Source: Flavobacteriales bacterium (lineage in GTDB: Bacteria > Bacteroidota > Bacteroidia > Flavobacteriales_C > GCA-002722245). Taken from it: DNA of 49,680 nucleotides. The stretch spans positions 1 to 49,680 of the forward strand of contig PBJD01000047.1 of NCBI GenBank assembly GCA_002720635.1, in the 5' to 3' direction. Below are positions 24,099 through 47,696 of the stretch, piece by piece. The stretch's first letter is position 1, and each line of letters begins with the position of its first letter. The notes under the pieces are model-generated. The model saw only the letters and a program-made list of their open reading frames with translations, searched no databases and was not told the DNA's origin. Both the position numbers and the translations under genes were made by a program.

Positions 24099-25430
24099 GT
24101 GAATTGGGTCCCATACATTTCTATATCTATCTTTCTTGTAAGCCTTATTGTTTATTATAAAACGAAGCTTAATGGAAAAGATATACTCATCGCAGCATCA
24201 ATTGTATTAATATCTTTTTTAAGCTGGCAATCTGCTCTTTGCTTAATAGCCCTTACAGCAGCAACTACTTTATTACAAAAGTCCAGGGCAAAAGCATGGA
24301 TTGGAATTATCATCCATTTAGGTGTTCTCTTATCAATATACCTTCCAAAAGAGAATCTCACCTTTTTTAAATTCGGTTTATCCTATTATGCCATTCAAAA
24401 CATTGGCTTATTACTTTTGAGCATAAGACATAAACCTCAGGAATATAACTTTAAAGATTTACTTTTTGCAAATGCTTTTTTTGCAAAATTTATTTCAGGC
24501 CCAATTCTACTGCCTAAAGAGATTAATGCTCTGGATCACCTTTCTAAATTCAATCCAAAAAATTTCACATCAGGTATAAACAGAATTCTGTTCGGAATTT
24601 TTAAGAAAATTGTTTTAGCTGACAACCTGCACATTATAACCGATACAGTATTTGGAGGTGAAGAAGTTGAATTTAAAGGAATTACTATTCTGATTGCCAG
24701 TATACTCTTTACTATCGAAATGTATTTAAATTTCAGCGCTTACACTGATATTGCATTAGGCGTTGGAAAATTGTTCAATGTAAACCTGAAAGAAAACTTT
24801 AAAATTCCTCTAAGATCCTCTTCTGTTAGTGAATATTGGAAAAAAACACATATTTCATTAATTGACTGGCTTACTCAAAACTTCTTTTACCCAATATCCT
24901 TTCAACTTCGAAAACATCCTAAATACAGTATCGTTATTGGCATATTAGTCACATTTATTTTAAGTGGTTTATGGCATGGGCTTTATGCTGGATTTTTAGT
25001 TTGGGGAATATTAAACGGAGTATATTTAAGCACAGAACATATTGGTAAAAAAGCTGGGATAAAACTGCCAAAATCGATTGGATGGTTATTTACAATTCTA
25101 TTCATAAGTTTTTCAAATCTATTTTTTGTTTCAAAAACATGGAAAAATTCACTAAATTTTACTCAACAGGTTTTCACTATCGAATCCTGGAACTTTAAAT
25201 GGGAAACCGATGTATTCGCAGTGCTAGGAAACGGTTGGCATTTAGAGCAACAATTTCAACTAGGAATGATTATAACATTGATTTTAATCTTTCTTATTTT
25301 GGAAAATAACCTTGAAAAAATGGCAAAATCACCCAATTTTTCAATAGGCTTTGTCTCCATTTTAACGCTTATTTGCTTTTTAATTGGAAACATCAATGAT
25401 GGTGCTGAATTCATATACATGCAATTTTGA
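24099..25430 (+). CDS. MBOAT family membrane-bound O-acyltransferase (DltB/AlgI-like)
   Basis: 443-aa polytopic membrane ORF with MBOAT blocks [15 protein letters not shown] and [16 protein letters not shown]. It has a GTG start 22 nt after the carrier-protein stop. Confidence 0.8.
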
Positions 25431-26356
25431 AAGCAGGGAAAAAACATAAGGAGTTAATTAAATCTGAAGCTTACAGATTAGGGTTTGATTATGTTGGTGT
25501 TTCAAAGGCTGAATTTCTTGAAGAAGACGCTCCGAGGCTGGAAAACTATTTACAAAAAAATCATCATGGTAAAATGAACTACATGGAAAACCATTTTGAT
25601 AAACGGCTAGATCCCAGGCTACTGGTAGATGACGCCAAATCAGTAGTTTCTTTTATGATTAATTATTTTCCTGAAAAAACACAAAATAAAAATTCCCCTA
25701 AAATTGCAAAATATGCCTATGGTCAGGATTATCATTTAGTCATTCGCCAGAAACTGAATCAATTGCTTGAATTTATTAACCATGAAATAGGTGAAGTATC
25801 GGGAAGAGGTTTTGTTGATTCGGCACCTGTTTTAGATAAAGCCTGGGCAAAAAAAAGTGGTCTGGGTTGGGTTGGGAAAAATGGAAATTTAATAAATAAA
25901 AAATCAGGGAGTTTTTTCTTCATTGCTGAACTGATTATAGACCTTGAACTACCCAGTGACGGCCCTGTAACTGATCACTGCGGAACATGCACTGCATGCA
26001 TAGACGAATGCCCAACTGAAGCAATTGTAGAACCCATGGTAGTTGATGGATCAAAATGTATTTCCTACTATACCATAGAATTAAAAGAATCCATTCCTGA
26101 ATCCGTAAATGGAAAATTTGATAACTGGATGTTCGGATGTGATATCTGTCAAGACATTTGTCCATGGAACCGGCTTTCCAAACCACACAATGAACCTCTT
26201 TTTAATCCTCATCCGGATTTACTTTCTATGACTCAAAAAGATTGGGATCACATCAATCAGGAGAGCTTCAGTAAACTCTTTTCTAAAAGTGCAGTTAAAA
26301 GAACTAAATTAACAGGCCTAAAAAGAAATATTGCTTTTTTAAAGAAAGGGAAATAA
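25427..26356 (+). CDS. queG: Epoxyqueuosine reductase
   Basis: 309-aa ORF with two 4Fe-4S ferredoxin motifs ([23 protein letters not shown]) in the QueG context. The TTG start overlaps the MBOAT stop by 4 nt. Confidence 0.9.
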
Positions 26357-26416
26357 CTGTATTGAAAAGTTTTCATTTTGCTTAATATTACCATTAAAAG
26401 CTATCTTTATATCGTT

Positions 26417-27262
26417 ATGGCGAACAGAAAGAAAACAGGGGGGAGCAGGAAAAGAAATCACGAACCTGCTGCAGTGCGATTTGGTAAGGATAAAAAAAGA
26501 GGGGGAGGACCCAAAAAAAGGTTAAATTCCAATTCATCAAATCTGGGTGATGGGACAACCCGGCTAAACAAATTTATCGCACATGCCGGAGTATGTTCTC
26601 GAAGAGAGGCTGATGAATTAATCCAATTGGGTTCAATTACAGTAAATGGAAAAATAATCACAGAGATGGGTTACAAGGTTAAAAACACTGACATTATAAA
26701 ACATGAAGGTGAAACTCTTTCCCACAATGAACTTTTTTACTTCGCCATTAATAAACCGAAAAATTTCAATTCAAACTGTGACAACCCATTAAAGGAAAGA
26801 ACTGTTGGACGATTAGTCAACAAAGCCACAAAATATATTTTATCACCCATTGTAAAACTAGAACGAGATTCCACTGGAATATTACTACTTACAAATGATA
26901 ATGATCTTTATTTAAAACTTTCTAATCCAAAACATGAATTTGAAAAAATTTTTCAATTGGAACTGGACAAACCACTTAAACAAGAAGATTTAGAAAAAAT
27001 AACTCAAGGAATACGCCTTCCTTCTGGTGGTTGGGCAAAAGCAGAATCCATTTCTTATGTTAAAGGGAATCAACATACCATTGGAGTCGAAATTTTAAAT
27101 AATAAACCTAAAATTTTGACAAAAATATTTGAGCTCTTAGGGTATAAAATTAAAAAAGCAGATAGAGTTTCATTTGCAGGAATAACAAAGAAAAATTTAT
27201 CCAGAGGGGAATATCGCAAACTTTCCGAAGCAGAAATTACTCAACTTAAAATGTTAGGCTAA
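26417..27262 (+). CDS. Pseudouridine synthase (RsuA/RluB family) with N-terminal S4 domain
   Basis: It has an S4 motif (RLNKFIAHAGVCSRREADELI) and a catalytic-Asp block (LERDSTGILLLTNDNDL), preceded by a basic N-terminal extension. I place the start at ATG 26417 (MANRKK...) rather than the ORF-track start at 26378. Confidence 0.8.
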   Translation: MANRKKTGGSRKRNHEPAAVRFGKDKKRGGGPKKRLNSNSSNLGDGTTRLNKFIAHAGVCSRREADELIQLGSITVNGKIITEMGYKVKNTDIIKHEGETLSHNELFYFAINKPKNFNSNCDNPLKERTVGRLVNKATKYILSPIVKLERDSTGILLLTNDNDLYLKLSNPKHEFEKIFQLELDKPLKQEDLEKITQGIRLPSGGWAKAESISYVKGNQHTIGVEILNNKPKILTKIFELLGYKIKKADRVSFAGITKKNLSRGEYRKLSEAEITQLKMLG

Positions 27263-36558: not shown

Positions 36559-39500
36559 ATGAGGAAAATACTCTTTAAATTATTTCTTTTGATAAGTTTT
36601 TCTTTGCAATCGCAAAGTTATCATTTCCTTAATTTAACTGTAGAGGACGGTTTAGCAGAAAATGAAGTGTTTGATTTAATTCAAGACAGAAGAGGTGCTA
36701 TCTGGATGGCAACACTTGGTGGAGTATCAGTTTATGACGGTTTAAGTTTTATGAATTTAAATGATAGTTCAGGTTTGCCATCTAACATCATAAACTGCTT
36801 ATATGAAGATATAAAAGGAGATATCTGGATTGGAACACATAAAGGCCTTACCGTATATGATGGAACTGAATTTCATACGTTTACTCAAAAAGATGGATTA
36901 CCCACTAATGTAGTAAAGTCAATTTGTGAAGATGGTTTTGGCAGACTTTGGATTGGAACACAGTATGGAGGTCTTTGTATGCTGGACAACTTTGCAAAAG
37001 ACAAAAAAACATTTGTTCCATTCGACATAAATTTTGGTGGTAGGGGGAGGCTTTCTGTAAACAAAGTGATTGAGACCCCCGATGCAAAAATTTATATTGG
37101 AACAAATCAAGGATTAGCAGAAATATTTAACGGTATAGTAAAAACCTACACTACAAAAAATGGATTAATAGGAAACAGCATTTATGATTTGGAGGAAGAT
37201 GTAAATGGAGATATCTGGATTGGAACCAGAGACGGCTTATCCGTTTTTTCAGATGGTATATTTAATAACTTCACCCCAAGTCCCAATTTCCCTGTTAATG
37301 CAGTAAAAACACTGGAACAGGACAAAAGTGATAATATATGGATAGGAACAGTAAATTCAGGGGTGATAAAATTAAACATCAACAATTATGAATGTGAAAT
37401 ATTCAACGAAGAAAATGGACTAAGTGAAGACTTGGTATTATCAATTCTGGAAGATAAACACGATAATATCTGGGTAGGGACAAAAGGTGGAGGAGTTAAT
37501 AAAATAACGAGATCCTCTTTCAAGTCGATAGGAATTAAAGATGGATTGCCAAATGAAAAAATTAATGGATTAATTCAAGATTCCAAAGATAACTTTTGGT
37601 TTGCTACAAGAGGAGGTCTGATAAGGTATAATGGAGTAGATTCTTTTCAATTATTTGATAAAAAATCCGGCCTTCCTGTAAATTATACAACAACCGTTTT
37701 CGAAGACAGTAAAAAGAATATATGGGCAGGAACACTTTTAGGTGTAGTTAAAATACAAAATGGCGTAATTCAAAAAGTTTATTCAGTTTTAGACGGAGTT
37801 AGGAATCCCGTAACATGTTTTTTTGAAGATCAGAATGGCATAATCTGGATTGGAACAGAAGGTGGTCTGGGAAAACTTGATGATGATGCTACAATAAAAT
37901 TTTATCGAATGTTTGATGGCCTGAGTGACGGAAAAATAAGCGCTGTAACTCAAGATAAATCAGGTAAATTGTGGATTGGAACAAAAAGCAGAGGTATTAA
38001 TTGGTTTAATGGAATTGAATTCGGTCAGATTAGTGAAGATGACGGTTTAATCCCTTCCAATTTCATTAATTGTATTACAAAAGGCCCAAGAGGAGGAATT
38101 TATATCGGAACAAATGCAGGAATTACAAAATTTGATGAAAATCGAAACACATATAAAACATTCAACACAAACAATAGCAAAATAAGTTCAGACAACATCA
38201 AAATGATGTTATTTGACGAAGATAATCAGTTATGGATTGGCACAAACAAAGGATTGGATAGAATTTCCTTCAATCCTCCCCAAATTACGCGCCAAACAGG
38301 AGAGTATATTTCTGAAGTTAAACACTTTGGAAAGTCTGATGGAATTACAGGCGGACAAATAAATGGAAATGCAATTTGCGAAGATTTTGATGGAAACTTG
38401 TGGTTTGGAACAAATAAAGGAGTTATAAAACACGACAGAAGTGTTGATCACACCAGTGATATTGCGCCACAAACTTATTTTACCGCCCTGGAGTTAGAAA
38501 ATAAAATAATAAACTGGGCAAAAAGAAATTACGAAGTAGAAGCCTGGTCTAAAATGCCAAAAAATCTTGTTTTACCGCATGATTCATCAACATTAACTTT
38601 TCATTTTGTAGGAATCAACCATGATAACTCAGCTGAAACAACTTATTACTCCTATCTGGAAAGAGATGGTGAAGTTTTTGCTCCCTTAAAAATAAATAAT
38701 GAGAGTAAAAGAGATTTTACAAAACTTCCTCCCGGTGAGTATCAATTTGTAGTATATGCATGTAACAAAGATGACTTTTGTAATGATAAAACATCTTCAA
38801 AATTCTCATTTACAATCTCTCCTCCATTTTGGGCAGAAATTTGGTTTATAATTCTGATTTCATTAGTAATCATATTTGCTATCATACTTTTCATCAAATA
38901 TCGAGAGAAAAAATTAAAGGAAGAGCGTGAGTTTTTAGAAGAAAAAGTAAAAGAACGCAATCAGGAAGTTTTAGAAAAAAATAAAGAACTTGAATCCGTT
39001 AATTTGGAAATGATTTCCGTAAATAAAGAAATTGAACAAAAAAATAACGATTTAAATTCAAGTATTCGGTATGCTTTAACAATACAGAAAGCATCCTTTC
39101 CTCCACTTCAAAACTTGTATGAAGAACTGCCAAATTCTTTTATTTACCATTTACCAAGAGATATTGTTTCGGGTGATTTTTATTGGTACAGAAAAACAAA
39201 TAATAAATTTGTAATTGCTTGTGCTGATTGCACAGGACACGGAGTTCCAGGTGCTCTTACCAGCATGATAGGAATTGCTCTCTTAAATGAAATTGTGGGT
39301 GGTAATAAAATAACTGACCCTTCTGAAATTTTGAGACTACTTGATCAAGGTATTCTTAAGGCATTTGAAAATAGTGAATCAGAAACTAACGATGGAATGG
39401 ACATTAGCTTAATTACAATAGATACAAAAGCTGATACTATTGAATATTCCGGAGCTTATCGGCCATTAATAATGATCAGAAATAATGAACTTTTTGAATA

Positions 39501-39795
39501 CAAAGCCACCAAAACATCAATAGGGTTTAAAGATGTTGAAAATAAGATTTTTGAAAAGACGACTTTGAAATATCAGAAGAGTGACTGTTTTTATATGTAT
39601 TCTGATGGATATCCTGATCAATTTGGCGGACCAAAAAATAAAAAATTCAAGAGTAAAATATTTAAAGAGATGTTGATTGAGGGAAATTCAAAAAGCATGA
39701 AAAATCAAAAGGAAATTATTAGTCAGCGCTTTAATGAATGGATGGGAGACCGCGAACAGGTTGATGATATCCTAATTATGGGAATTAAATTTTAA
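36559..39795 (+). CDS. Periplasmic double beta-propeller (14 Reg_prop repeats) + Y_Y_Y sensor fused through one TM helix and a coiled coil to a PP2C/SpoIIE-type Ser/Thr phosphatase
   Basis: 1078-aa ORF with a signal peptide and 14 repeats carrying (I/L)W(I/F)GT.xGL cores. It has a Y_Y_Y-like segment (TYYSYLERDG...GEYQFVVYA), a TM helix (IWFIILISLVIIFAIILFI) and a KE-rich coiled coil. PP2C blocks are VSGDFYWY, ADCTGHGVPGAL, NDGMDISL, YSDGYPDQFGG and QVDDILIMGIKF. Confidence 0.85.
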   Translation: MRKILFKLFLLISFSLQSQSYHFLNLTVEDGLAENEVFDLIQDRRGAIWMATLGGVSVYDGLSFMNLNDSSGLPSNIINCLYEDIKGDIWIGTHKGLTVYDGTEFHTFTQKDGLPTNVVKSICEDGFGRLWIGTQYGGLCMLDNFAKDKKTFVPFDINFGGRGRLSVNKVIETPDAKIYIGTNQGLAEIFNGIVKTYTTKNGLIGNSIYDLEEDVNGDIWIGTRDGLSVFSDGIFNNFTPSPNFPVNAVKTLEQDKSDNIWIGTVNSGVIKLNINNYECEIFNEENGLSEDLVLSILEDKHDNIWVGTKGGGVNKITRSSFKSIGIKDGLPNEKINGLIQDSKDNFWFATRGGLIRYNGVDSFQLFDKKSGLPVNYTTTVFEDSKKNIWAGTLLGVVKIQNGVIQKVYSVLDGVRNPVTCFFEDQNGIIWIGTEGGLGKLDDDATIKFYRMFDGLSDGKISAVTQDKSGKLWIGTKSRGINWFNGIEFGQISEDDGLIPSNFINCITKGPRGGIYIGTNAGITKFDENRNTYKTFNTNNSKISSDNIKMMLFDEDNQLWIGTNKGLDRISFNPPQITRQTGEYISEVKHFGKSDGITGGQINGNAICEDFDGNLWFGTNKGVIKHDRSVDHTSDIAPQTYFTALELENKIINWAKRNYEVEAWSKMPKNLVLPHDSSTLTFHFVGINHDNSAETTYYSYLERDGEVFAPLKINNESKRDFTKLPPGEYQFVVYACNKDDFCNDKTSSKFSFTISPPFWAEIWFIILISLVIIFAIILFIKYREKKLKEEREFLEEKVKERNQEVLEKNKELESVNLEMISVNKEIEQKNNDLNSSIRYALTIQKASFPPLQNLYEELPNSFIYHLPRDIVSGDFYWYRKTNNKFVIACADCTGHGVPGALTSMIGIALLNEIVGGNKITDPSEILRLLDQGILKAFENSESETNDGMDISLITIDTKADTIEYSGAYRPLIMIRNNELFEYKATKTSIGFKDVENKIFEKTTLKYQKSDCFYMYSDGYPDQFGGPKNKKFKSKIFKEMLIEGNSKSMKNQKEIISQRFNEWMGDREQVDDILIMGIKF

Positions 39796-40117
39796 CCGCC
39801 AGAATTTCACTTACTTCAAGATTTAAAAAAGCTACCTGCAATAAATCTATACTCAAATTTAGTTCTTCCCAACTTAAAGCCAACATCATATTTTTCACCG
39901 GGGTTTTTAAAAAGACCTTTTCGACCAAATGATTCTTTTTTAAATCATATTCATCCTTAGTTCCTAATAATGCCTTTAAAAATATTTTTGGTTGCTCATC
40001 TTTAAACTTTAGTATAAAAGTGCCCACACCAATAATCATTTCCTGATATTCTTTACAATAAAGCACGTTTCCAATTTCGTTACTTGAGAGCATTTTATAA
40101 TTACAATCTGACATCAT
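39785..40117 (-). CDS. Hypothetical small protein
   Basis: 110-aa ORF with an ATG start and no recognisable motif. Its 3' end overlaps the phosphatase gene 3' end by 11 nt. Coding status is uncertain. Confidence 0.4.
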   Translation of the reverse strand: MMSDCNYKMLSSNEIGNVLYCKEYQEMIIGVGTFILKFKDEQPKIFLKALLGTKDEYDLKKNHLVEKVFLKTPVKNMMLALSWEELNLSIDLLQVAFLNLEVSEILAVKI

Positions 40118-40273: not shown

Positions 40274-41629
40274 TTATATTAAACCGCGAGACTTTAAATC
40301 AATATATTTATTAATGGTATCAATATTTAATCTTTCAGGGGTCGTTAAAATTGTATTTATACCATATTTTTTTAATTCAGCAGCTATTGTTTGCTTTTCA
40401 ATTACAGATTTTTGGGCTATCGTTTGTAAATATATTTCTTCAATTGACTCAGCTTTCCTATTAGATTTTTCAACTAATCCTGTATTTTCGAAGAAAATAA
40501 CTACCAATAAATGTAACTTACTGATTTTTCTAAGCATTGGCAAAGCGCGCTCCATAGCGTAAAGACTTTCAAAATTTGAATACAAAAAAAGTAAACTTCT
40601 ACCTTTTATATTCTGCCGAATACCATAGTATAACATTTCAAAATTAGCCTCATTATATCTTGTTTTTTGACGATACAAATTCTCTAATAATTTCCTTAAT
40701 TGCCCACCTAATTTATCCGCTTTAACATGAACACCCAATTTGTCAGAAAAGGTCATTAAACCTACTTTATCATCTTTTCGTAAAGCTATGTTTGAAATTA
40801 CCAATGCAGAATTAATACTATGATCCAATAAAGTCATATTATCAAAAGGCATTTTCATTGTTCTGCTTTTATCTATTATGGAATAGATTGTTTGCGAGCG
40901 TTCATCCTGGAACTGATTAACCATTAATTCCCCCTTGCGACTTGTAGCCCTCCAGTTTATCTTCCTGAAATCATCTCCCTGAACATATGCCTTAATTTGC
41001 TCAAATTCCTGAGCATTTCCAATCTGACGAACTTTTTTAAGCCCTTGATTTAAATTTGAATTTGTAAAAACTTTTAATTCATATTCTCGCATTAAACGAA
41101 CGGAGGGGTATACCTTTGCAGAAAAATCTTGAGAAAAACGGACTCTTCTCTGAACCATTCTTAAAAATGAGCCTGCAAATACATTTAATGAACCAAACAA
41201 ATACTCGCCTCTTTTTACAGGTCTCAAATTATATTTTAAAACATCTTCTTCTCCGGGTTTTAAGATTAGAAATTTAGAAAAATCTCTGATTTGAAACTGA
41301 TAAGGCAGTTCATCAATAATTTTAATTCTTATTGGAACTGAATTTTTATTTTTCACTCGTACTCTAACCTGATTGTTTTCCCCAAGGTTTAATTGCTCTT
41401 TTACTATTCTTTCTGCTTCTATTTTTTCTGAACCAAAAAACAAAATCAAAATATCAATAAACAAATACCCTATGACCAACGACAAAAACATTTGAGCATA
41501 AAAGAAAAATATTTCAATTAAAAAACTGACCATGAAAAAAGAAGCTGTAACTCCCAGCAGAAAGTAAAACCAACTTGTTAAATAGATGTTTGCTATGAAT
41601 TTATTTTTTTTCATTAAATTCTCATACAA
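40274..41629 (-). CDS. DUF58 domain protein (vWA-like MoxR partner) with N-terminal TM hairpin
   Basis: 451-aa ORF with two N-terminal TM helices and the DUF58 signature GDDFRKINWRATSRKGELMVNQFQDERSQ. It starts 5 nt after the moxR stop. Confidence 0.8.
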   Translation of the reverse strand: MYENLMKKNKFIANIYLTSWFYFLLGVTASFFMVSFLIEIFFFYAQMFLSLVIGYLFIDILILFFGSEKIEAERIVKEQLNLGENNQVRVRVKNKNSVPIRIKIIDELPYQFQIRDFSKFLILKPGEEDVLKYNLRPVKRGEYLFGSLNVFAGSFLRMVQRRVRFSQDFSAKVYPSVRLMREYELKVFTNSNLNQGLKKVRQIGNAQEFEQIKAYVQGDDFRKINWRATSRKGELMVNQFQDERSQTIYSIIDKSRTMKMPFDNMTLLDHSINSALVISNIALRKDDKVGLMTFSDKLGVHVKADKLGGQLRKLLENLYRQKTRYNEANFEMLYYGIRQNIKGRSLLFLYSNFESLYAMERALPMLRKISKLHLLVVIFFENTGLVEKSNRKAESIEEIYLQTIAQKSVIEKQTIAAELKKYGINTILTTPERLNIDTINKYIDLKSRGLI

Positions 41630-41634
41630 CTAAA

Positions 41635-42735
41635 TTAACGAGGAACTTCTATTTTTTGAATAATTTCAGCAATCACATCTTCTGCAGTAATGCCCTCCAT
41701 TTCAGTCTCCGGAGTTAAAATAATTCTATGGTTTAAAACAGGTTCCGAGACGTATTGAATGTCGTCGGGAGTAACGAAATCTCTTCCTCTAATCGCAGCA
41801 GCAGCTTTAGCAGATTTTAAAATAGAGAGAGATGCTCTGGGTGAGGCTCCAATATATAATCTTGCGTGGTTTCTGGTCTCAGCAATTAACTTAGCGATAT
41901 ACTCAATTAACTGATCTTCTATTTTGACTTCCTCTATTAATCCCTGAAACTCTTCAATTTCAGCGGCACTTAAAATAGAATTAATTTGATCAAATGAAAC
42001 ATCTTTAATACTATTTTTAAAGCGCTTTAATATCTCTACTTCTTCCTGAAAAGAAGGGTATTCCAACTTTATTCTAAAAATAAATCTATCCAGTTGAGCT
42101 TCTGGTAATCGGTATGTACCTTCTTGTTCAATAGGGTTTTGTGTAGCCATTATAAAAAAGGGAGGGTCCATTTTATACTTAACACCATCATTTGTCACCT
42201 GTCTTTCCTCCATAATTTCAAAAAGTGCAGCTTGAGTTTTAGCAGGAGAACGATTGATCTCGTCAATCAATACGATATTGGAAAAAACAGGACCTTTCTT
42301 GTAAGTGAATTCTGATGTTTTTACGTTGAAAATTGATGTTCCTAAAACATCTGACGGCATTAAATCTGGAGTGAATTGAATTCTTGAGTAATCAACCGAA
42401 AGTGTTTTTGAAATCACCTTAGAAGTCATTGTTTTGGCTATTCCAGGAACACCCTCAAGCAAAACATGTCCTCTTGAAAATATAGCCAGCAAAATCTGAT
42501 CAATAAGCTGGTGTTGTCCAATAATCAATTTACTTACTTCTTTCTTTACAGCATCTACCTTGGCCTGAAAATTCTGTAATTTCAACCTCGATTCCGGTAC
42601 AAAAGAAACCGATTCAGTATCTTCCTCAACAGAAGGCAAGCTATTTTCCATATCGGTTTTAGATTCCTCAATATTATTCTGATCATTTTCTTGATTCAAA
42701 TCAGTTTTAGGTTGCAGATTTTCGTTTGATTCCAT
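41635..42735 (-). CDS. MoxR-family AAA+ ATPase
   Basis: 366-aa ORF with Walker A (HVLLEGVPGIAKT), Walker B (VLIDEINRSPAKTQ) and the MoxR-type block ATQNPIEQEGTYRLPEAQLDRF. It has a ~50-aa acidic N-terminal extension. Confidence 0.9.
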   Translation of the reverse strand: MESNENLQPKTDLNQENDQNNIEESKTDMENSLPSVEEDTESVSFVPESRLKLQNFQAKVDAVKKEVSKLIIGQHQLIDQILLAIFSRGHVLLEGVPGIAKTMTSKVISKTLSVDYSRIQFTPDLMPSDVLGTSIFNVKTSEFTYKKGPVFSNIVLIDEINRSPAKTQAALFEIMEERQVTNDGVKYKMDPPFFIMATQNPIEQEGTYRLPEAQLDRFIFRIKLEYPSFQEEVEILKRFKNSIKDVSFDQINSILSAAEIEEFQGLIEEVKIEDQLIEYIAKLIAETRNHARLYIGASPRASLSILKSAKAAAAIRGRDFVTPDDIQYVSEPVLNHRIILTPETEMEGITAEDVIAEIIQKIEVPR

Positions 42736-42737
42736 AA

Positions 42738-44018
42738 TTATTTAGCTTTTTTATAAAAATTATTTAGCTTTTTGTACAAATTAACCAGGTATTCATCCGA
42801 TACACCAGTGAGGTTTGCTCCCCCTTTAAATAAATTAAGTATATCTTGAATTTCTGATTTTTCAACACCGGATTTTTGAGCAATTCTTCTTACATATACT
42901 TCTTCCTCGGAAGAAGCAATATAATATCGAGACTTAATCTTATTTTTAAAGATGTTCTCCATGTGAACGATTAATTTGTTATGTTGATTTTGTTTTAAAT
43001 ACAATCGAGCAATAGTCTCTGTAAATTCAAGAGATGAATTGTCATTGGAGGAAACTGTGGGCATTATCTTTTGCTGTCTTTTCCCTGTAAAAATCACAAA
43101 CAAAATTACACCTGCCAAAATAATAAAATACCCCCATCGAAGAGCATGATTACTCAGAAGGAAATCAAGTGAATTTAGTTCTCGTGAAAAATCATTTTCA
43201 GGATGGTCAATCTCCATAGTGCCATCATCGTAAGCGTAATGAGTGTAATTGTCAAATAAAATTGCACTACTCGAAAAATATGAAAGTACTGTTTCCACAT
43301 ATTCTTTTCCCGATTCAGAGCTCATATATCTGTTTGTAAAAACTTGTGGTATCGTATGAATTAATATTTTGCCATCTCCATATTTGAATTCTGCATAACA
43401 CGGACGATAACCCGCTTTACCAATCGTTCTTCCATCAAAGCCATATTCTATACCATAATTTATATTATACCACCTCTTTGTTTTTGACTTCCCTTTGACT
43501 TCATTTGCAATTTCATACTCACCTGTAAACCTGCTGTCCTCAAAAGACAAAGATATCGACGAATCATTGGTGTAACCATAATAATTGTAGTCATTATAAT
43601 TGTAAAAAATTTCCTTTAAAAGATGATTCGGTAAAAATTCAGCGGCAAGAAACATGGTATTCCCCTTATCAACAAAACGCAATAAACTGTCAACCTCATT
43701 ATTATATAAATTAAGCGATTTTCCCACAAAAAAATAAGTTACGTTATCCAACTTTATTTGCATTTCAGTACTGTCAAAGTAAGATTGGACAGACACATTT
43801 ATATCATGTACGGAATGACCCTCAAGGCCATTATCAAAAATTCTTCTGATAAAAAAAGTGCCATAAGGATGTTTACTTTTTGAATCGTATGTTTTTTCCC
43901 AATTAATTGACTCAACGGTTCTTTCTCTAATTGCAACATTATCTTGATTACTTTCTCCAAAAAAATACGCAACACATCCGAGTAGCAAAACCAAGACAAT
44001 CATTATTACATATTTCAT
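42738..44018 (-). CDS. DUF4350-like membrane protein
   Basis: It has an N-terminal TM helix, a large extracytoplasmic domain beginning INWEKTYDSKSKHPYGTFFIRRIF (DUF4350-like), a second TM helix (WGYFIILAGVILFVIF) and a cytoplasmic tail. I chose ATG 44018; the ORF-track GTG is at 44036. Confidence 0.6.
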   Translation of the reverse strand: MKYVIMIVLVLLLGCVAYFFGESNQDNVAIRERTVESINWEKTYDSKSKHPYGTFFIRRIFDNGLEGHSVHDINVSVQSYFDSTEMQIKLDNVTYFFVGKSLNLYNNEVDSLLRFVDKGNTMFLAAEFLPNHLLKEIFYNYNDYNYYGYTNDSSISLSFEDSRFTGEYEIANEVKGKSKTKRWYNINYGIEYGFDGRTIGKAGYRPCYAEFKYGDGKILIHTIPQVFTNRYMSSESGKEYVETVLSYFSSSAILFDNYTHYAYDDGTMEIDHPENDFSRELNSLDFLLSNHALRWGYFIILAGVILFVIFTGKRQQKIMPTVSSNDNSSLEFTETIARLYLKQNQHNKLIVHMENIFKNKIKSRYYIASSEEEVYVRRIAQKSGVEKSEIQDILNLFKGGANLTGVSDEYLVNLYKKLNNFYKKAK

Positions 44019-44048
44019 AGAAGTGTTTATTGCCACCTTTTGATCTAC

Positions 44049-44984
44049 TTACTTTATTTTGCTTATCAACTCTTTAAAATGTTTCTCAACCACATTAAAT
44101 TCATCCAATAAAATATTATATTTTCCATACCAAATGAACTCATAATTTTTTACTCCTGCTTCGAAATCTTCTGAAAATGACTTATCAGCAAGTTCTAAAT
44201 GATAATGATAATTGGTTTTTCTCTTTTTCCAATTGATATAACCTTTATCCGATAACTCCTTAATTACCCAGACAAAATATAATCTGGTAGCCACTCTATA
44301 GTCCTTTGACTCCTTGGCTCTTTTGATGTTTATTTCCAATTCAGACAATTGCACGGAATCAGGATTCATTTCCTGATGATATAAAATCTTAGCTCCGGAA
44401 CCCTCTATCGGAGCATTAACAAACAACATATATGCTGCCGCTCCAAGAATAATCGCAATAAGAAGTATTAAAATAAATTTAAAAATTCCTCCGCCATAAC
44501 TAATCTCAGAACTGTATTCCTCGCTCATTCTATCCGATGGCTCCACCTTCCTTAGCCGATTTTCTTCAATTTGTCTTTTTCTGTTTTCCAACCTTTCCAG
44601 AGCAACTCTTCTTTGGTACTCTTTTCTTTTAGTATTTTCTCGGGCGTCGGGCTGAACACCATCACCAGAATTGTTGGCTCCACCACCTCTATTTTTTTCC
44701 GAATAATAACTTCTTCCTGTAATTGAATCATGAATATAAATTGTATAATTATCACCTTTTTCAACACCATAGCCAACTCCGAATTGAGAGCTGTCCTCAA
44801 GAAGTTTTTTTTGCTCCATGTCCTCAATTAAATCAACTTCTTCCTTTAACTTTTCATATTCTTTTGCATTAAACTCTTTCTTATCCGGACCATAATAAAC
44901 TTCATCATAAGCTGTTTGTGACCTTACTAAAAAAGTAGAAAAAATAACTAAAACCAGAACAACCTTCCTAAAAATCTCCCTCAT
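44049..44984 (-). CDS. DUF4129-like membrane protein
   Basis: 311-aa ORF with a signal/anchor, a charged low-complexity segment, a TM helix (FKFILILLIAIILGAAAYMLFV) and a C-terminal region (YRVATRLYFVWVIKEL...INWKKRKTNYHYHLEL...YGKY) resembling DUF4129. Confidence 0.6.
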   Translation of the reverse strand: MREIFRKVVLVLVIFSTFLVRSQTAYDEVYYGPDKKEFNAKEYEKLKEEVDLIEDMEQKKLLEDSSQFGVGYGVEKGDNYTIYIHDSITGRSYYSEKNRGGGANNSGDGVQPDARENTKRKEYQRRVALERLENRKRQIEENRLRKVEPSDRMSEEYSSEISYGGGIFKFILILLIAIILGAAAYMLFVNAPIEGSGAKILYHQEMNPDSVQLSELEINIKRAKESKDYRVATRLYFVWVIKELSDKGYINWKKRKTNYHYHLELADKSFSEDFEAGVKNYEFIWYGKYNILLDEFNVVEKHFKELISKIK

Positions 44985-46869
44985 CTATATGTTCAAATAA
45001 ATTATTCTTATTTCCAAAATCTTGTAACCTACTGTATAGTGTTAAAGCCATAATTCGCTCTCTAACAGAGTGAAATTGGATTGCCAATCCAGTAATAACA
45101 AATGAAATTATCACTACCAAGAAAAAATAATACAACACAAAATTTAATGCATTGGCATATTGCGTTACATTATCGGTAAAAGGGTTTACATGCTCCAGGA
45201 AAAATTGAGTTATAAAATCTAACGCTGCTGTAGTACTTGAGCCAAAAATTCTTGACAAAATAAAGCCTGCAAAGAATAAAATTAAAGGAATTACCATTTG
45301 TAATAAGAATACCCCTATTGATCCAAGCCAAGATTTAAAAACTAATTTTACTCCCGTCCTGTAAAGTCGTCCATATTTATCCTCATGGTAAAAGCCAAAG
45401 TATGAAAACTGAAAAATAAACGGAACCAAAAATACTCCAATTAAAATCATTAATGGATTTTGCCATAAATGCATAAACACCAAAAATATGATTAATGGCC
45501 AAATCTTTATAAGTCCAAAAAAGCAATATTTATAGAAACCATAGGTTTTAAATTTTTGATTCACTCTATAAAGAAACAAAGCGTAATAAACACTTAAAAA
45601 AACAGGTACTATTAAAATCATCATAAAAATTAGGTTAACCCATCCCGATGGCTCCAGATAAAAAACGTTTTCCAAAGTTTTCCACCAATCTAATTCTTGC
45701 TCATATTCAGTTAAAAAAAAGAAATGATAAACTGTTATGGAAAGCATGAAAGGAAAACCTGAAAGGGATAGGCCTCTTAGAATATTGCCAAAAGATTGCC
45801 GAAACAATTTTAAGGTGTCGTTGAAAATATCCCCTACCTCTCTAACTTTTTCAAAAGGAATCTTTTTATGTTCTGTATGCGGAATCGTATCATTAAAAAT
45901 AAATTTACCCGTTTTTATTTTTGTCTTGTATAGATAAATAGGGTATGCGATAAAATAAAAACAAACTAACGCTAAAGAACCTAAAACAAGACTATACTTT
46001 AATGCCATTGGCATATTGGTATATCGAGTTATACTGCCTTCAATAAAACCTGCAATAATCAGCATGAAAAGACACCCGATAATTATTTTAAAACTTCTTT
46101 TAGCTGTAATTCGCAAAGACTGTAAACGCGTGTAGGTCCCCGGAAAAAGTAAACCTCCACCAAGTAAAAATCCAGCTCCTCCTGCTAAAATTATTGCAGA
46201 AATTTCTAATACACCGTGAATCCAAATAATCCACATAGCATTATCGAGCACTCCTTTATAAAATAAATAATAATGGAACGCACCTAGCATTATTCCATTT
46301 TTTATTAATATAACTACAGAAGGAATACCTCCAACAATACCAAAAGTATAGGTCGTTGCAGCAACTATCGTATTATTTGTGGTCAACCCAAAAGTTGACC
46401 ATGCAGAATTTCCATGTTGATGATATACTGCCATAGGATCGCCATTTTTTATATTTTCATCTGTCATTTGAATATAGCTTGAACCCATTATTTCCTTAGC
46501 ATATTCAATATCGTTTGCAGATGAAACAATACCAATCATGATGGCACCAGTAAAGACAACCAGAGAAAGTAATATTGGTTTCCAACTTCGAGCAACCTCC
46601 ATTGGCAAACCAAATGTGAAAAATTTAACAAAACTAGCCCCTTTTACCTTTTTGTTTTTGTTCACTTTTAAAAACACCAATTGAGACAAGTAATTCAAGT
46701 AAACACGAACGGATCGCTTGTTGTAAAATGTTCTTGTATAGCTTAAATCATCTGTGATTTCGACAAATAACTTGGTTAGCTCATCAGGATTCGCATTTTC
46801 TCTGCGTTGCATATCCTCAAACTTTTTCCAGCTCTTCTTTTTCTGTCGTATAAAGGTAGTTTCCCGCAC
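44968..46869 (-). CDS. SpoIIM/DUF95-like polytopic membrane protein with an extra C-terminal polytopic domain
   Basis: 633-aa ORF with a GTG start. The N-terminal ~315 aa (MRETTFIRQKKKSWKKFEDM..., IWIHGVLEISAIILAGGAG, FIEGSITRY) resembles stage II sporulation protein M-like proteins. Residues ~320-633 add at least 6 hydrophobic helices with no motif I recognise. Confidence 0.65.
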   Translation of the reverse strand: MRETTFIRQKKKSWKKFEDMQRRENANPDELTKLFVEITDDLSYTRTFYNKRSVRVYLNYLSQLVFLKVNKNKKVKGASFVKFFTFGLPMEVARSWKPILLSLVVFTGAIMIGIVSSANDIEYAKEIMGSSYIQMTDENIKNGDPMAVYHQHGNSAWSTFGLTTNNTIVAATTYTFGIVGGIPSVVILIKNGIMLGAFHYYLFYKGVLDNAMWIIWIHGVLEISAIILAGGAGFLLGGGLLFPGTYTRLQSLRITAKRSFKIIIGCLFMLIIAGFIEGSITRYTNMPMALKYSLVLGSLALVCFYFIAYPIYLYKTKIKTGKFIFNDTIPHTEHKKIPFEKVREVGDIFNDTLKLFRQSFGNILRGLSLSGFPFMLSITVYHFFFLTEYEQELDWWKTLENVFYLEPSGWVNLIFMMILIVPVFLSVYYALFLYRVNQKFKTYGFYKYCFFGLIKIWPLIIFLVFMHLWQNPLMILIGVFLVPFIFQFSYFGFYHEDKYGRLYRTGVKLVFKSWLGSIGVFLLQMVIPLILFFAGFILSRIFGSSTTAALDFITQFFLEHVNPFTDNVTQYANALNFVLYYFFLVVIISFVITGLAIQFHSVRERIMALTLYSRLQDFGNKNNLFEHIDEGDF

Positions 46870-46955
46870 TTCAATAAAATTGAAGGTTAAAATTGCTGTT
46901 TATCCTTCTGAATCCAAAACAATTTGTATTATTTCTTGCTATATTGGCACTTTAA

Positions 46956-47696
46956 ATGCGTACAATAAGTATAAATACAACCCAAAATGTAGCCATTGAC
47001 TACGAACTGGCTGGTTTAATGGAACGCTTGTTAGCTTTTTTATTGGATAGTATAATTTTAGCTGCTTATTTATCAATCGTTAGAAAATTTATTTTATTAG
47101 GTGCTTTAAGTGGTTCTGGTGACATCATTTTATTTGTAGCCGTTGTCTTTCTTATGTTCCCTCCTATTATTAGTTATCATTTAATCTGTGAATCCTTATG
47201 GAATGGTCAATCCATTGGAAAAAAAGCACTCGGAATTAAAGTAATGAAGTGTAATGGACAACAAATGGACATCGGCGATTATGGAAAACGGTGGATGTTT
47301 CGTCTTATTGATATTTTATTATCATGTGGAAGTGTAGCCGTTATTACCATTATGAGCAATGACTACAACCAAAGGCTTGGGGATATTGTTGGTGATACTT
47401 GCGTTGTGAAAATAAATCCAAGAAATCAAATGTCCATTAAAGACGTTCTAAAAATTAAAACTCAAGAAAACTATGAACCCAAATACGAGGGGGTAGTTCG
47501 TTTTACAGAAGAGGATATGCTTTTGTTAAAAAACACTTTGGACAGAGCAAAAAGAAATCCAAATGTTCATTATAAAAAATTACTGGCTTTGTTAGCCGAC
47601 AAAATTTGCAAAGAACTTGACATTAAAAAAGTACCCAAGCAAAGAACTAAATTCCTGAAGACTATATTGAATGACTATATTGTCCTAACCCGCTAG
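46956..47696 (+). CDS. RDD family membrane protein
   Basis: 246-aa ORF with RDD-type elements (GLMERLLAFLLDSIIL; QSIGKKALGIKV; QRLGDIVGDTCVV) plus a ~90-aa soluble C-terminal extension. It is divergent from the SpoIIM-like operon. Confidence 0.8.
   Translation: MRTISINTTQNVAIDYELAGLMERLLAFLLDSIILAAYLSIVRKFILLGALSGSGDIILFVAVVFLMFPPIISYHLICESLWNGQSIGKKALGIKVMKCNGQQMDIGDYGKRWMFRLIDILLSCGSVAVITIMSNDYNQRLGDIVGDTCVVKINPRNQMSIKDVLKIKTQENYEPKYEGVVRFTEEDMLLLKNTLDRAKRNPNVHYKKLLALLADKICKELDIKKVPKQRTKFLKTILNDYIVLTR

Follow-up and report, generated by a model that had tools for sequence, protein, structure and literature searches.

Does the block of membrane-protein genes around a MoxR ATPase in the window (the whole stretch of 49,680 nucleotides that was analysed) form an undescribed system, and what might it do? 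The first-pass annotation described a membrane/AAA+ module with no assigned function and put it forward as a system yet to be described. The module is real, and its families, topologies and gene order stood, although a gene fusion and a degenerate MIDAS had been missed. It is not an undescribed system peculiar to the window, since the gene set is widespread, its mycobacterial counterpart is annotated and a related prediction was published earlier (Makarova et al., 2015). It is a widespread "known unknown" and not a new class; no experimentally defined role for the gene set was found in the literature, as the annotation had held, nor any interaction, transcript or phenotype data for the module in any organism. 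The coordinates and spacings given earlier for the six ORFs all match the ORF calls:

40274-41629, minus strand: DUF58 gene, 451 aa
41635-42735, minus strand: MoxR gene, 366 aa
42738-44036, minus strand: DUF4350 gene, 432 aa
44049-44984, minus strand: gene of P4 (the fourth protein, DUF4129-like), 311 aa
44968-46869, minus strand: SpoIIM-like fusion gene, 633 aa
44968-45909, minus strand: its second polytopic membrane domain, about residues 321-633, roughly five TM helices
45910-46869, minus strand: its SpoIIM half, about residues 1-320
46870-46955: 86-bp spacer separating the fusion gene from the divergent RDD gene
46956-47696, plus strand: RDD gene, 246 aa

From the ORF coordinates, the SpoIIM-like and P4 genes share 17 nt; P4 and DUF4350 are 12 nt apart (30 nt if the start is the next ATG), DUF4350 and MoxR 2 nt, and MoxR and DUF58 5 nt. 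Median intergenic gaps of -4, -4, 3 and 9.5 nt in Bacteroidota agree with the proposal of one conserved, probably co-transcribed module. The 86-bp spacer contains no exact copy of the Bacteroidetes-type TAnnTTTG motif, and a sigma-70 scan of the region scored 43, not above shuffled sequences (37 +/- 6). Pfam bore out the DUF58, MoxR (AAA_3), DUF4350, SpoIIM and RDD families, and a recognisable enzyme domain occurs in none of the partner membrane proteins, as had been claimed. Topology calls throughout were made from hydropathy and the positive-inside rule only.

The MoxR protein matches AAA_3 (4.5e-61) and AAA_lid_2 (2.4e-25) as well as PDB 2R44 (1.2e-85). It is soluble, with no TM helix predicted, and its N-terminal ~55 residues are acidic and of low complexity. 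GVPGxAKT, LIDEINR, ATQNP and the PEAQLDRF region are at least 90% conserved across 76 orthologs; the first two motifs are read here as Walker A and B, and the predicted ATP-binding and hydrolysis motifs are kept. The DUF58 protein (PF01882, 8.4e-16) begins with a predicted two-helix membrane hairpin (residues 23-41 and 47-65), followed by a predicted cytoplasmic beta-sandwich and a vWA-like domain, for which the sub-threshold VWA_2 match (8.4e-4) is the sole vWA-type match among the six proteins. Its MIDAS is degenerate, with D-K-[G/S]-R-x-M at the DxSxS position in 74 orthologs, and a sequence search found no solved homolog of the protein.

In the 633-aa SpoIIM-like gene, SpoIIM is joined to a second polytopic domain, so that the earlier reading as a SpoIIM-like polytopic protein holds for the first half of the gene, where PF01944 matches residues 102-282 only (1.1e-30), but overlooked the two-domain architecture. 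By the TM map, this half has a K/R-rich cytoplasmic N-domain of 98 aa and then the 5-TM SpoIIM domain; in a homolog (L001, whose P4 partner is 55% identical), a precomputed match to PF28475 (DUF8413) precedes SpoIIM. The second domain has no direct Pfam match in the window and is probably related to GPDPase_memb, DUF7544 and UPF0259, the GPDPase_memb link being made through transitive profile matches. Its profile matches the ORF that precedes DUF4129 in Streptomyces and a Planctomycete (1e-9 to 1e-15); a scan of three such ORFs put two above the cutoff of PF10110, one at 36.5 bits and the other barely (29.9 against 29.6). In Bacteroidota, 25 ORFs carry the domain on its own and 27 as a fusion, while in 29 of 81 loci, a few of them truncated, it was undetected, which implies that the parts are not all obligatory.

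P4 was described earlier as a bitopic protein with a charged segment and a DUF4129-like tail. Topology prediction agrees with the first part, placing a signal-peptide-like N-terminus ahead of the charged RRVALERLENRKRQIEENRLRK helix, then a single TM helix (171-189) and a 122-aa tail. P4 itself has no Pfam match even at E <= 10, but 25 of 47 sampled homologs match PF13559 (DUF4129), so the tail assignment is supported only transitively; the P4 family profile found 6011 representative clusters. The periplasmic region is poorly conserved and carries a clade-specific DSSxFGxGYGVEKG motif and a K/R-rich helix. The helical tail is conserved (~205-311, pLDDT ~90), and the residues R234, W252, T257, N258, Y261 and W285-Y286-G287 are invariant; against the PDB it has no significant match, the best being a HEPN-like bundle (E 0.09). 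Mean K+R of 1.7 versus 3.4 around the TM helix favours a cytoplasmic tail.

The DUF4350 protein (PF14258, 1.4e-8, 35.7 bits against a cutoff of 30.4) is predicted to have an N-terminal TM/signal anchor, a 270-aa extracytoplasmic domain, TM2 and a 116-aa cytoplasmic tail, consistent with the earlier description of a large extracytoplasmic domain between two TM helices. In 59 orthologs, the flanks of TM2 have a mean K+R of 1.6 on the N-side versus 4.5 on the C-side. The AF2 model (mean pLDDT 73) suggests an alpha/beta, GIFT/GH42-trimerisation-like ectodomain and a tail of five helices, with the IFT52 N-terminal domain (1.4e-4) and GH42/GH164 middle domains as best Foldseek matches. The RDD protein (PF06271, 3.9e-17) has three TM helices by the TM map, followed by a 114-aa K/R-rich C-terminal tail.

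The neighbourhood extends well beyond close relatives. The canonical order occurs in 57 of 66 evaluable Bacteroidota loci (GTDB species), an arrangement far beyond chance. The order SpoIIM-DUF4129-DUF4350-MoxR-DUF58 is also found in Pseudomonas, Lysobacter, Alcanivorax and Planctomycetaceae; a Vicinamibacterales MAG fits it by position, the ORF in the middle having no Pfam match. Streptomyces has [GPDPase_memb-like]-DUF4129-DUF4350-MoxR-DUF58, with no SpoIIM or RDD seen in the 8-kb blocks, and an actinomycete MAG (L129) has the Mtb-type layout MoxR-DUF58-SpoIIM(-)-RDD(+). RDD was rightly counted as a member: 57 of 66 Bacteroidota loci have it next to the cluster in divergent orientation, and in Alcanivorax, Lysobacter and the Vicinamibacterales MAG (L161, L083, L084) it is adjacent, upstream of SpoIIM and apparently co-directional, although ORF calls overlap there. 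Conservation within the module is strongest for MoxR, DUF58 and the DUF4129 tail. A survey of 120 MoxR loci gave 39 TgpA-type, 24 BatA-type and ~17 module-type loci; against the Bacteroidota module MoxR profile, module-type MoxRs of other phyla score a median of 378 bits and other MoxRs 345 (Mann-Whitney p = 9e-8).

DUF4129 and DUF4350 recur beside MoxR-DUF58 in otherwise different contexts. TgpA loci share the MoxR-DUF58 pair, and DUF4129 forms the C-terminal tail of TgpA proteins beside it (four of seven sampled); TgpA differs in its TgpA_N polytopic domain and transglutaminase core, a catalytic domain that the window lacks, and the DUF4129 of the window is on a small bitopic protein instead. 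A polytopic domain is fused to DUF4129 in Proteobacteria, and a Gemmatimonadota MAG has a BatA+VWA+DUF4350 fusion adjoining MoxR-DUF58. Such fusions (SpoIIM with the second domain, a polytopic domain or TgpA with DUF4129, BatA+VWA with DUF4350) argue for physical association of the parts.

The mycobacterial counterpart is Rv3689-Rv3695 with MoxR2 (Rv3692), annotated and co-regulated, and the M. chelonae orthologs of Rv3689 and Rv3691-Rv3695 show a joint 6- to 8-fold fall (PMC8191103). It has the same families (Rv3691, DUF4350; Rv3692, MoxR; Rv3693, DUF58; Rv3694c, SpoIIM; Rv3695, RDD; Rv3689, 'transmembrane protein') and is likewise uncharacterised; to judge from the Streptomyces loci, Rv3689 may be GPDPase_memb-like and Rv3690 the DUF4129 protein. 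It differs in that SpoIIM and RDD lie downstream of DUF58, with SpoIIM on the opposite strand and unfused to a second membrane protein. Rv3694c and Rv3695 co-purify with the divisome-associated Rv0954 in one mass-spectrometry list (PMC8093794). In archaea, arCOG01314 (DUF4350)-MoxR-vWA was predicted to be a 'secretion or membrane remodelling complex', and bacterial SpoIIM was found to adjoin vWA and COG0714 genes in non-sporeformers (Makarova et al., 2015; PMC5898192). The core of DUF4350, COG0714 MoxR and an Ig-like/vWA (DUF58-type) protein is common to both, and the likening of archaeal DUF4350 to GldG and the beta-galactosidase trimerisation domain was reproduced by the fold search here. 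The archaeal version has S-layer and Ig-like surface proteins, and SpoIIM, RDD and DUF4129 are absent from the paper's component list; its vWA protein is predicted to be secreted, whereas the window DUF58 appears cytoplasmic and hairpin-anchored. The SpoIIM of Bacillus subtilis, part of the SpoIID-SpoIIM-SpoIIP engulfment complex, shares the Pfam domain, and in Bacillus SpoIIM is a scaffold for cell-wall hydrolases according to work cited in PMC5898192; the window protein is from a non-sporulating lineage, carries a second membrane domain in the same chain and is linked to MoxR-DUF58.

The locus is best read as one instance of an ancient multi-phylum module (RDD, SpoIIM, GPDPase_memb-like domain, DUF4129, DUF4350, MoxR, DUF58) in which MoxR and DUF58 remodel the membrane proteins of their own operon, a reading that we regard as evenly poised. 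A cytoplasmic MoxR hexamer would work with the inner-membrane DUF58, whose two-helix hairpin would leave the beta-sandwich and vWA-like domains facing the cytoplasm. The template is borrowed from NorQ-NorD, RavA-ViaA and CbbQ-CbbO, which likewise pair a MoxR-class AAA+ with a vWA-type adaptor; as in NorQ-NorD (PMC9976466, PMC13036017), the vWA-like domain would couple ATP hydrolysis to the client. These pairs belong to other MoxR subfamilies and have soluble vWA partners, an intact MIDAS and a defined client enzyme, unlike the membrane-anchored window adaptor with its degenerate MIDAS and no known client. The prime candidate clients among the operon's proteins would be the DUF4129 and DUF4350 proteins through their conserved helical tails in the cytoplasm, while their N-terminal parts, including the GIFT-like ectodomain, would be periplasmic; SpoIIM with its K/R-rich N-domain, the fused second domain and RDD may form a platform within the membrane. 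The machine would use ATP to assemble an inner-membrane complex with a small periplasmic face or to switch its conformation, presumably acting from MoxR towards these partners. A role in envelope or cell-surface remodelling is a guess and the weakest step, and a cell-wall-specific role is weakened by the DUF4350-MoxR-vWA core in archaea, which have no peptidoglycan. The canonical MIDAS serines, the client grip of NorD-type vWA proteins, are not conserved in DUF58, which counts against the mechanism, and if the DUF58-like protein were secreted, as predicted for archaea, direct contact with MoxR would be impossible.

Maturation of an unlinked client is an unlikely alternative, conceivable because cofactor or metal insertion is the best-documented role of MoxR-vWA pairs (NorQD, CoxDE, CbbQO, MoxR-methanol dehydrogenase); the membrane proteins would then serve only as tethers or regulators of MoxR-DUF58, or to provide an ion. 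Five co-inherited membrane families make an unusually heavy tether, no conserved candidate client enzyme adjoins the module in 80 Bacteroidota loci or in other phyla, and the client-gripping MIDAS of NorD is the feature that is degenerate here. We are rather more doubtful of a dedicated secretion or surface-assembly system in which MoxR energises export or display. The published archaeal prediction, the resemblance of the DUF4350 ectodomain to the GIFT domains of GldG and IFT52 and the fact that all partners are membrane proteins fit such a system, but S-layer and Ig-like surface proteins are missing from the bacterial module, as are an obvious channel-forming or outer-membrane component and a conserved cargo gene; the genes on either side vary between loci, and MoxR members of known role act as chaperones in remodelling or cofactor insertion and not as translocases.

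A general stress or aerotolerance module equivalent to Bat, with other membrane partners in place of BatA-E, seems improbable. Both have MoxR followed by DUF58, a BatA+VWA+DUF4350 fusion exists and DUF4350 domains occur in some BatA-like proteins (L121), the M. abscessus ortholog MAB_0389c is among the oxidative-stress genes in a table of a hypoxia-adaptation review, and the Riemerella Bat MoxR affects survival of heat and oxidative stress. The first-pass annotation had set the cluster apart from Bat, and this holds at gene level, since no BatA N-terminal domain, separate vWA protein or TPR protein is encoded in it (no Pfam match to BatA or TPR models in any of the six proteins) and BatA-type and module-type loci are almost disjoint (1 of 24 overlapping), but at the level of domains the boundary is softer; with no established mechanism for Bat, this reading explains little. 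Least credible, to the point of being very improbable, is the idea that the module is an anti-phage or conflict system of the MoxR-vWA ternary type, or that unrelated genes are neighbours here by mere chance. MoxR does match bpMoxR (2e-11, Pfam) and is weakly similar to the DolB and IetA ATPases in PADLOC, but its AAA_3 match is much stronger, the other five proteins have no PADLOC match, GC content is about that of the surroundings and no mobile-element-like feature occurs among the scanned window ORFs. Chance adjacency is excluded by the conservation of gene order across phyla.

The gene cluster at 40274-47696 is real, and it is a widespread and partly noted variant of the MoxR-DUF58 membrane modules, of which the copy in the window is an ordinary member with a SpoIIM fusion as its sole distinctive trait. 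Its six ORFs lie at the positions proposed in the first-pass annotation and are listed below with the basis of each call; P4 is the fourth module protein, of 311 aa.

40274-41629, minus strand, DUF58 gene (ORF call and Pfam)
41635-42735, minus strand, MoxR gene (ORF call and Pfam)
42738-44036, minus strand, DUF4350 gene (ORF call and Pfam)
44049-44984, minus strand, P4 gene (ORF call; DUF4129 through profile homologs)
44968-46869, minus strand, SpoIIM-like gene, 633 aa (ORF call and Pfam)
46956-47696, plus strand, RDD gene (ORF call and Pfam)

The spacings described earlier also hold, with a 17-nt overlap between the SpoIIM-like and P4 genes, intervals of 12 nt (or 30 nt if the following ATG is used), 2 nt, and 5 nt along the rest of the run, and a divergent spacer of 86 bp before the RDD gene. 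Scans for promoters and terminators told little: no internal terminator was seen on the operon strand, sigma-70-like sites did not rise above shuffles, and the exact Bacteroidetes motif TAnnTTTG is absent from the 86-bp spacer. The GC content of the module (0.31-0.34) is like that of the remainder of the window, and the surrounding genes, for SprA of the T9SS, fatty-acid synthesis, AspRS, and MenC, are what is usual on a Flavobacteriales chromosome.

Pfam supports five of the six families assigned at first pass, namely DUF58, MoxR, DUF4350, SpoIIM, and RDD, while an NCBIfam search of the six proteins added nothing specific. The MoxR protein, predicted to be soluble by hydropathy, is an AAA_3 MoxR-family member with core (AAA_3, 4.5e-61 across all 131 profile positions), lid (AAA_lid_2, 2.4e-25), and conserved motifs: across 76 orthologs, conservation is 90% or more in GVPGxAKT, LIDEINR, ATQNP, and the PEAQLDRF region, which we take to be Walker A, Walker B, sensor 1, and the arginine finger. 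It is the sole module protein with a solved relative by sequence (PDB 2R44, 1.2e-85). The DUF58 protein matches PF01882 at 8.4e-16 (58.3 bits vs. a cutoff of 23.4) and has a conserved segment, EFxQIKxYVxGDDxRxxNW. Hydropathy shows a tight two-helix membrane hairpin, and its 386-residue body is therefore predicted to face the cytoplasm. Both families of the MoxR-DUF58 pair are thus confirmed, but the degenerate MIDAS of DUF58 had been missed. The DxSxS position reads D(72/74)-K-[G46/S27]-R(72)-[V/A/T/P/S]-M(72) across 74 orthologs; since both serine positions of this first motif vary, these proteins depart from the canonical DxSxS...T...D of NorD/ViaA/CbbO-type vWA adaptors. The VWA_2 match in DUF58 is below cutoff (20.4 vs. 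27 bits).

The SpoIIM family of the 633-aa protein is well supported (PF01944, 1.1e-30, 107.1 bits, all 163 profile positions, residues 102-282, preceded by a K/R-rich N-domain of 98 aa), but its fusion to a second polytopic domain at residues 321-633 had been overlooked; with this fusion, the window holds seven domain families in six genes. In the SpoIID-SpoIIM-SpoIIP engulfment machinery of sporulating organisms, SpoIIM has the partner hydrolases SpoIID and SpoIIP; the neighboring loci come from Bacteroidota, which are non-sporulating. Residues 321-633 have no direct Pfam match in the window protein. Of 81 Bacteroidota loci surveyed, no second membrane domain was detected in 29, a few of these being truncated; elsewhere, 25 ORFs encode it alone and 27 encode it as a fusion. 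Tenacibaculum and Polaribacter (L027, L031, L035-L037, L041, and L043, with others) are among the lineages without a detected copy, and the domain seems to be one that the module can lose or exchange. The profile of this domain also matches an ORF in one Planctomycete and five Streptomyces loci, in each case the one directly preceding DUF4129 (1e-9 to 1e-15). Three such ORFs were scanned with PF10110 (GPDPase_memb, cutoff 29.6 bits), with L107 scoring 36.5 bits, L111 29.9 bits, and L082 below the cutoff; the scanned relatives also match DUF7544 and DUF7847. One stand-alone Flavobacteriaceae ortholog gave sub-cutoff matches to UPF0259 (8e-6) and PF10110 (3e-4). The RDD protein (PF06271, 3.9e-17, 63.3 bits vs. 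a cutoff of 24.1) has three TM helices and a basic tail of 114 aa by hydropathy and the positive-inside rule. A common fold or family for the DUF4350, DUF4129, and RDD tails and the SpoIIM N-domain was rejected at the sequence level (all hhalign probabilities at most 9%).

The DUF4350 protein is assigned by a Pfam match above cutoff (PF14258, 35.7 vs. 30.4 bits) together with a GldG/GIFT-like alpha/beta ectodomain, and a precomputed PF14258 match is present in 36 of 39 homologs. Hydropathy and the positive-inside rule predict a 270-aa ectodomain between an N-terminal anchor and a second TM helix, with a 116-aa tail after the latter, the second helix being flanked by a mean of 1.6 K+R outside and 4.5 inside. 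In the AF2 model (mean pLDDT 73), the ectodomain resembles the N-terminal (GIFT) domain of IFT52 (E 1.4e-4) and the middle domain of GH42/GH164 glycosidases, an outcome that agrees with the HHpred result of Makarova et al. A tblastn search of the protein against PLSDB plasmids returned no match.

P4 had been described as having a DUF4129-like tail, and this description stands through relatives. P4 itself has no DUF4129 match and no Pfam match at all, even at E <= 10, NCBIfam likewise gave none, and 35 close homologs carry no precomputed Pfam domains. A P4-family profile searched against 1.84 billion representatives found 6011 clusters, in which the conserved part is the TM helix and the C-terminal ~145 residues, and 25 of 47 sampled homologs match PF13559 (DUF4129; best 9.6e-9). 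The gene at the P4 position matches the same family in Pseudomonas (2.4e-8), Lysobacter (8e-9), Planctomycetaceae (4.5e-6), and Streptomyces (7.7e-16). P4 is thus a DUF4129 member only transitively, because it is the profile-found homologs, not P4, that match PF13559. Most homologs are predicted by hydropathy and the positive-inside rule to have a signal-peptide-like N-terminal segment, one TM helix (flanking K+R, mean 1.7 vs. 3.4), and the DUF4129 tail. The N-region of P4 is poorly modeled, and the tail is modeled with confidence (pLDDT about 90) as a bundle of helices, for which a fold search of the PDB gave no significant match; the best was a HEPN-like four-helix bundle at a non-significant E of 0.09, and a HEPN identity is not claimed. 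A paper on the AopN "DUF4129" effector was uninformative, the protein being unrelated and XopN-like with a KEGG motif match.

Two lineage-specific features of DUF4129 proteins were also seen. At residues ~60-100, P4 carries DSSxFGxGYGVEKGDxYxIYxYDS, a motif without variation among its 27 closest homologs; these proteins are ~300-350 aa long vs. a median of 248 aa among Bacteroidota P4 homologs, which suggests a periplasmic insertion particular to the clade, and the region is poorly modeled (pLDDT <50). Gammaproteobacterial DUF4129 proteins measure 513-569 aa (L181:395-1936, L084:3954-5663, L161:4844-6490) and have a long, apparently polytopic N-terminal domain without a Pfam match, which in several cases starts with "LRPRxxWEAxDLG", a motif also found on shorter ORFs at the equivalent position in L083 and L193. 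Homology of this proteobacterial domain to the second membrane domain of the window is rejected or undetectable (hhalign probability 0.8%).

The order of the families is conserved well beyond close relatives, a point that the first-pass annotation had put forward for checking. Word-index protein searches yielded ~35-39 close relatives per query, and a combined pattern and tblastn scan of the genomes of GTDB species gave 80 Bacteroidota loci spanning Flavobacteriales, Saprospiraceae and Chitinophagales, Bacteroidales, Cytophagales, and Prolixibacteraceae. With local jackhmmer labeling, RDD on the minus strand followed by SpoIIM, P4, DUF4350, MoxR, and DUF58 on the plus strand was found in 57 of 66 evaluable loci, with median intergenic gaps of -4, -4, 3, and 9.5 nt. 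Other phyla were sampled by searching DNA for GC-biased codings of QFTPDL[LM]PSD, a MoxR motif, which gave 120 blocks of 8 kb, of which at least ~17 are module-type, 39 TgpA-type, and 24 BatA-type; the blocks are uncentered, and the module-type counts are therefore lower bounds. HMMs and Pfam show the SpoIIM-DUF4129-DUF4350-MoxR-DUF58 order in Pseudomonas, Lysobacter, Alcanivorax, and a Planctomycete. Rhizobacter fits it by position, with a putative DUF4129 gene, and a Vicinamibacterales MAG by position only, the ORF there having no Pfam match. In Alcanivorax, Lysobacter, and the Vicinamibacterales MAG, the RDD gene seems to lie upstream in the same direction, with overlapping ORF calls. Streptomyces blocks have the second membrane protein followed by DUF4129-DUF4350-MoxR-DUF58, and an Actinomycetota MAG has the M. 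tuberculosis-type arrangement of MoxR-DUF58-SpoIIM(-)-RDD(+). MoxR proteins of module-type loci score higher against the Bacteroidota module profile (median 378 vs. 345 bits for others, p = 9e-8).

The MoxR-DUF58 pair is shared with other loci, and a Bat-like stress module was considered. The Bat operon has BatA/BatB (BatA N-domain and vWA) and the TPR proteins BatC/BatE after MoxR-DUF58, whereas the module is without these: Pfam finds no BatA or TPR match among the six proteins, and the sole vWA match is the sub-cutoff VWA_2 inside DUF58. BatA-type and module-type loci overlap in 1 of 24 cases, in keeping with the earlier statement that this is not the Bat context, and a Bat-like role is very unlikely. 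TgpA (TgpA_N and a transglutaminase core) is the gene after DUF58 in 7 of 10 sampled non-module loci, and four of the seven TgpA proteins end in DUF4129. A Gemmatimonadota MAG encodes a BatA+VWA+DUF4350 fusion after MoxR-DUF58 (L121:4078-6240), and the DUF4350 ectodomain thus occurs also in a Bat-type context; an alphaproteobacterial MAG has a BatA+DUF4159 protein at this place (L138:3172-6030). The TgpA-DUF4129 and BatA+VWA+DUF4350 proteins make DUF4129 and DUF4350 recurrent partners of MoxR-DUF58, which is read as evidence that the pair acts on or docks to them. A defense system or chance adjacency is highly improbable; the defense reading was rejected as PADLOC gave only MoxR matches, to DolB (37 bits) and IetA, both weak and generic to ATPases, and none for the other five proteins.

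Archaeal DUF4350, MoxR, and Ig/vWA proteins have been predicted to form a "secretion or membrane remodelling complex", and bacterial SpoIIM homologs adjoin vWA and COG0714 genes (Makarova et al., 2015; PMC5898192). In M. chelonae, the orthologs of Rv3689, Rv3691 (DUF4350), Rv3692 (MoxR2), Rv3693 (DUF58), Rv3694c (SpoIIM), and Rv3695 (RDD) drop together 6- to 8-fold (PMC8191103), and co-IP of the divisome-associated Rv0954 includes Rv3694c and Rv3695 (PMC8093794). The proposal of an undescribed system was therefore too strong, the module being neither unique to the window nor wholly undescribed, and its companion claim held up: the literature searched contains no experimentally shown function for the ensemble.

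In the model that we favor, at about even chances, MoxR and a membrane-anchored DUF58 would remodel membrane clients encoded in the same operon, chiefly the DUF4129 and DUF4350 tails, within a platform of SpoIIM, the second membrane domain, and RDD; that the output faces the envelope is a weaker guess. The template is NorQD, where the MoxR pore takes up a vWA finger and the client is held by the MIDAS (PMC9976466, PMC13036017). The degenerate DUF58 MIDAS, a topology drawn from hydropathy and the positive-inside rule, and the occurrence of a DUF4350-MoxR-vWA core in archaea count against this model. Maturation of an unlinked client is unlikely, and a secretion system, the other half of the archaeal prediction, is distinctly unlikely. 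A bolder reading, which we hold to be rather doubtful, sees an "inside-out" membrane machine of a hitherto unrecognized, AAA+-powered class, found in several bacterial phyla and with its DUF4350-MoxR-vWA core also archaeal. Cytoplasmic MoxR-DUF58, by pulling or twisting the tails of DUF4129 and DUF4350, would switch the periplasmic GIFT-like domain and the SpoIIM/RDD platform and thereby govern a basic process of the envelope, for example division or the remodeling of the cell wall or of surface polymers. If true, this reading would assign functions in one step to five DUF-level families, among them the Rv3689-Rv3695 proteins of M. tuberculosis.

Few AAA+ machines are as poorly understood as MoxR-vWA pairs; to our knowledge, a client has been identified for only a handful of them, NorQD, CbbQO, and RavA-ViaA being examples. 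Two things set the module apart: the genes for its likely clients lie beside it, and it is retained across Bacteroidota, Actinomycetota, Pseudomonadota, Acidobacteriota, and Planctomycetota. A long-standing question, on what MRP-type MoxR ATPases act, thereby becomes directly testable. Orthologs are present in genetically tractable Flavobacterium, Pseudomonas, Streptomyces, and mycobacteria, and a function solved in one organism would annotate DUF58, DUF4129, DUF4350, non-sporulation SpoIIM, and RDD in many genomes, including M. tuberculosis.

Several other genes of the window were recorded. Convergent with the module, 36559-39795 (+) encodes a 1078-aa protein with 13 Reg_prop beta-propeller repeats, Y_Y_Y, a TM/coiled-coil region, and a C-terminal SpoIIE-type (PP2C) phosphatase domain, a sensor architecture with a phosphatase rather than a kinase output. 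A 110-aa ORF at 39785-40117 (-) follows downstream of DUF58 after 156 nt, shares 11 nt with the end of the phosphatase gene, and has a borderline DUF6686 match (1.3e-4, 22.4 bits vs. a cutoff of 23.9); the related locus L001 has no called gene at the equivalent position. A SprA (T9SS translocon) homolog of 2424 aa lies at 6328-13602 (+) (SprA_N, 1.5e-172) and an 849-aa protein with a CHU_C type IX secretion signal at 21083-23632 (+); the organism therefore possesses a T9SS, which is unlinked to the module. The stretch 24099-27262 (+) encodes an MBOAT-family membrane O-acyltransferase (4e-15) followed by two ORFs of 309 and 294 aa.
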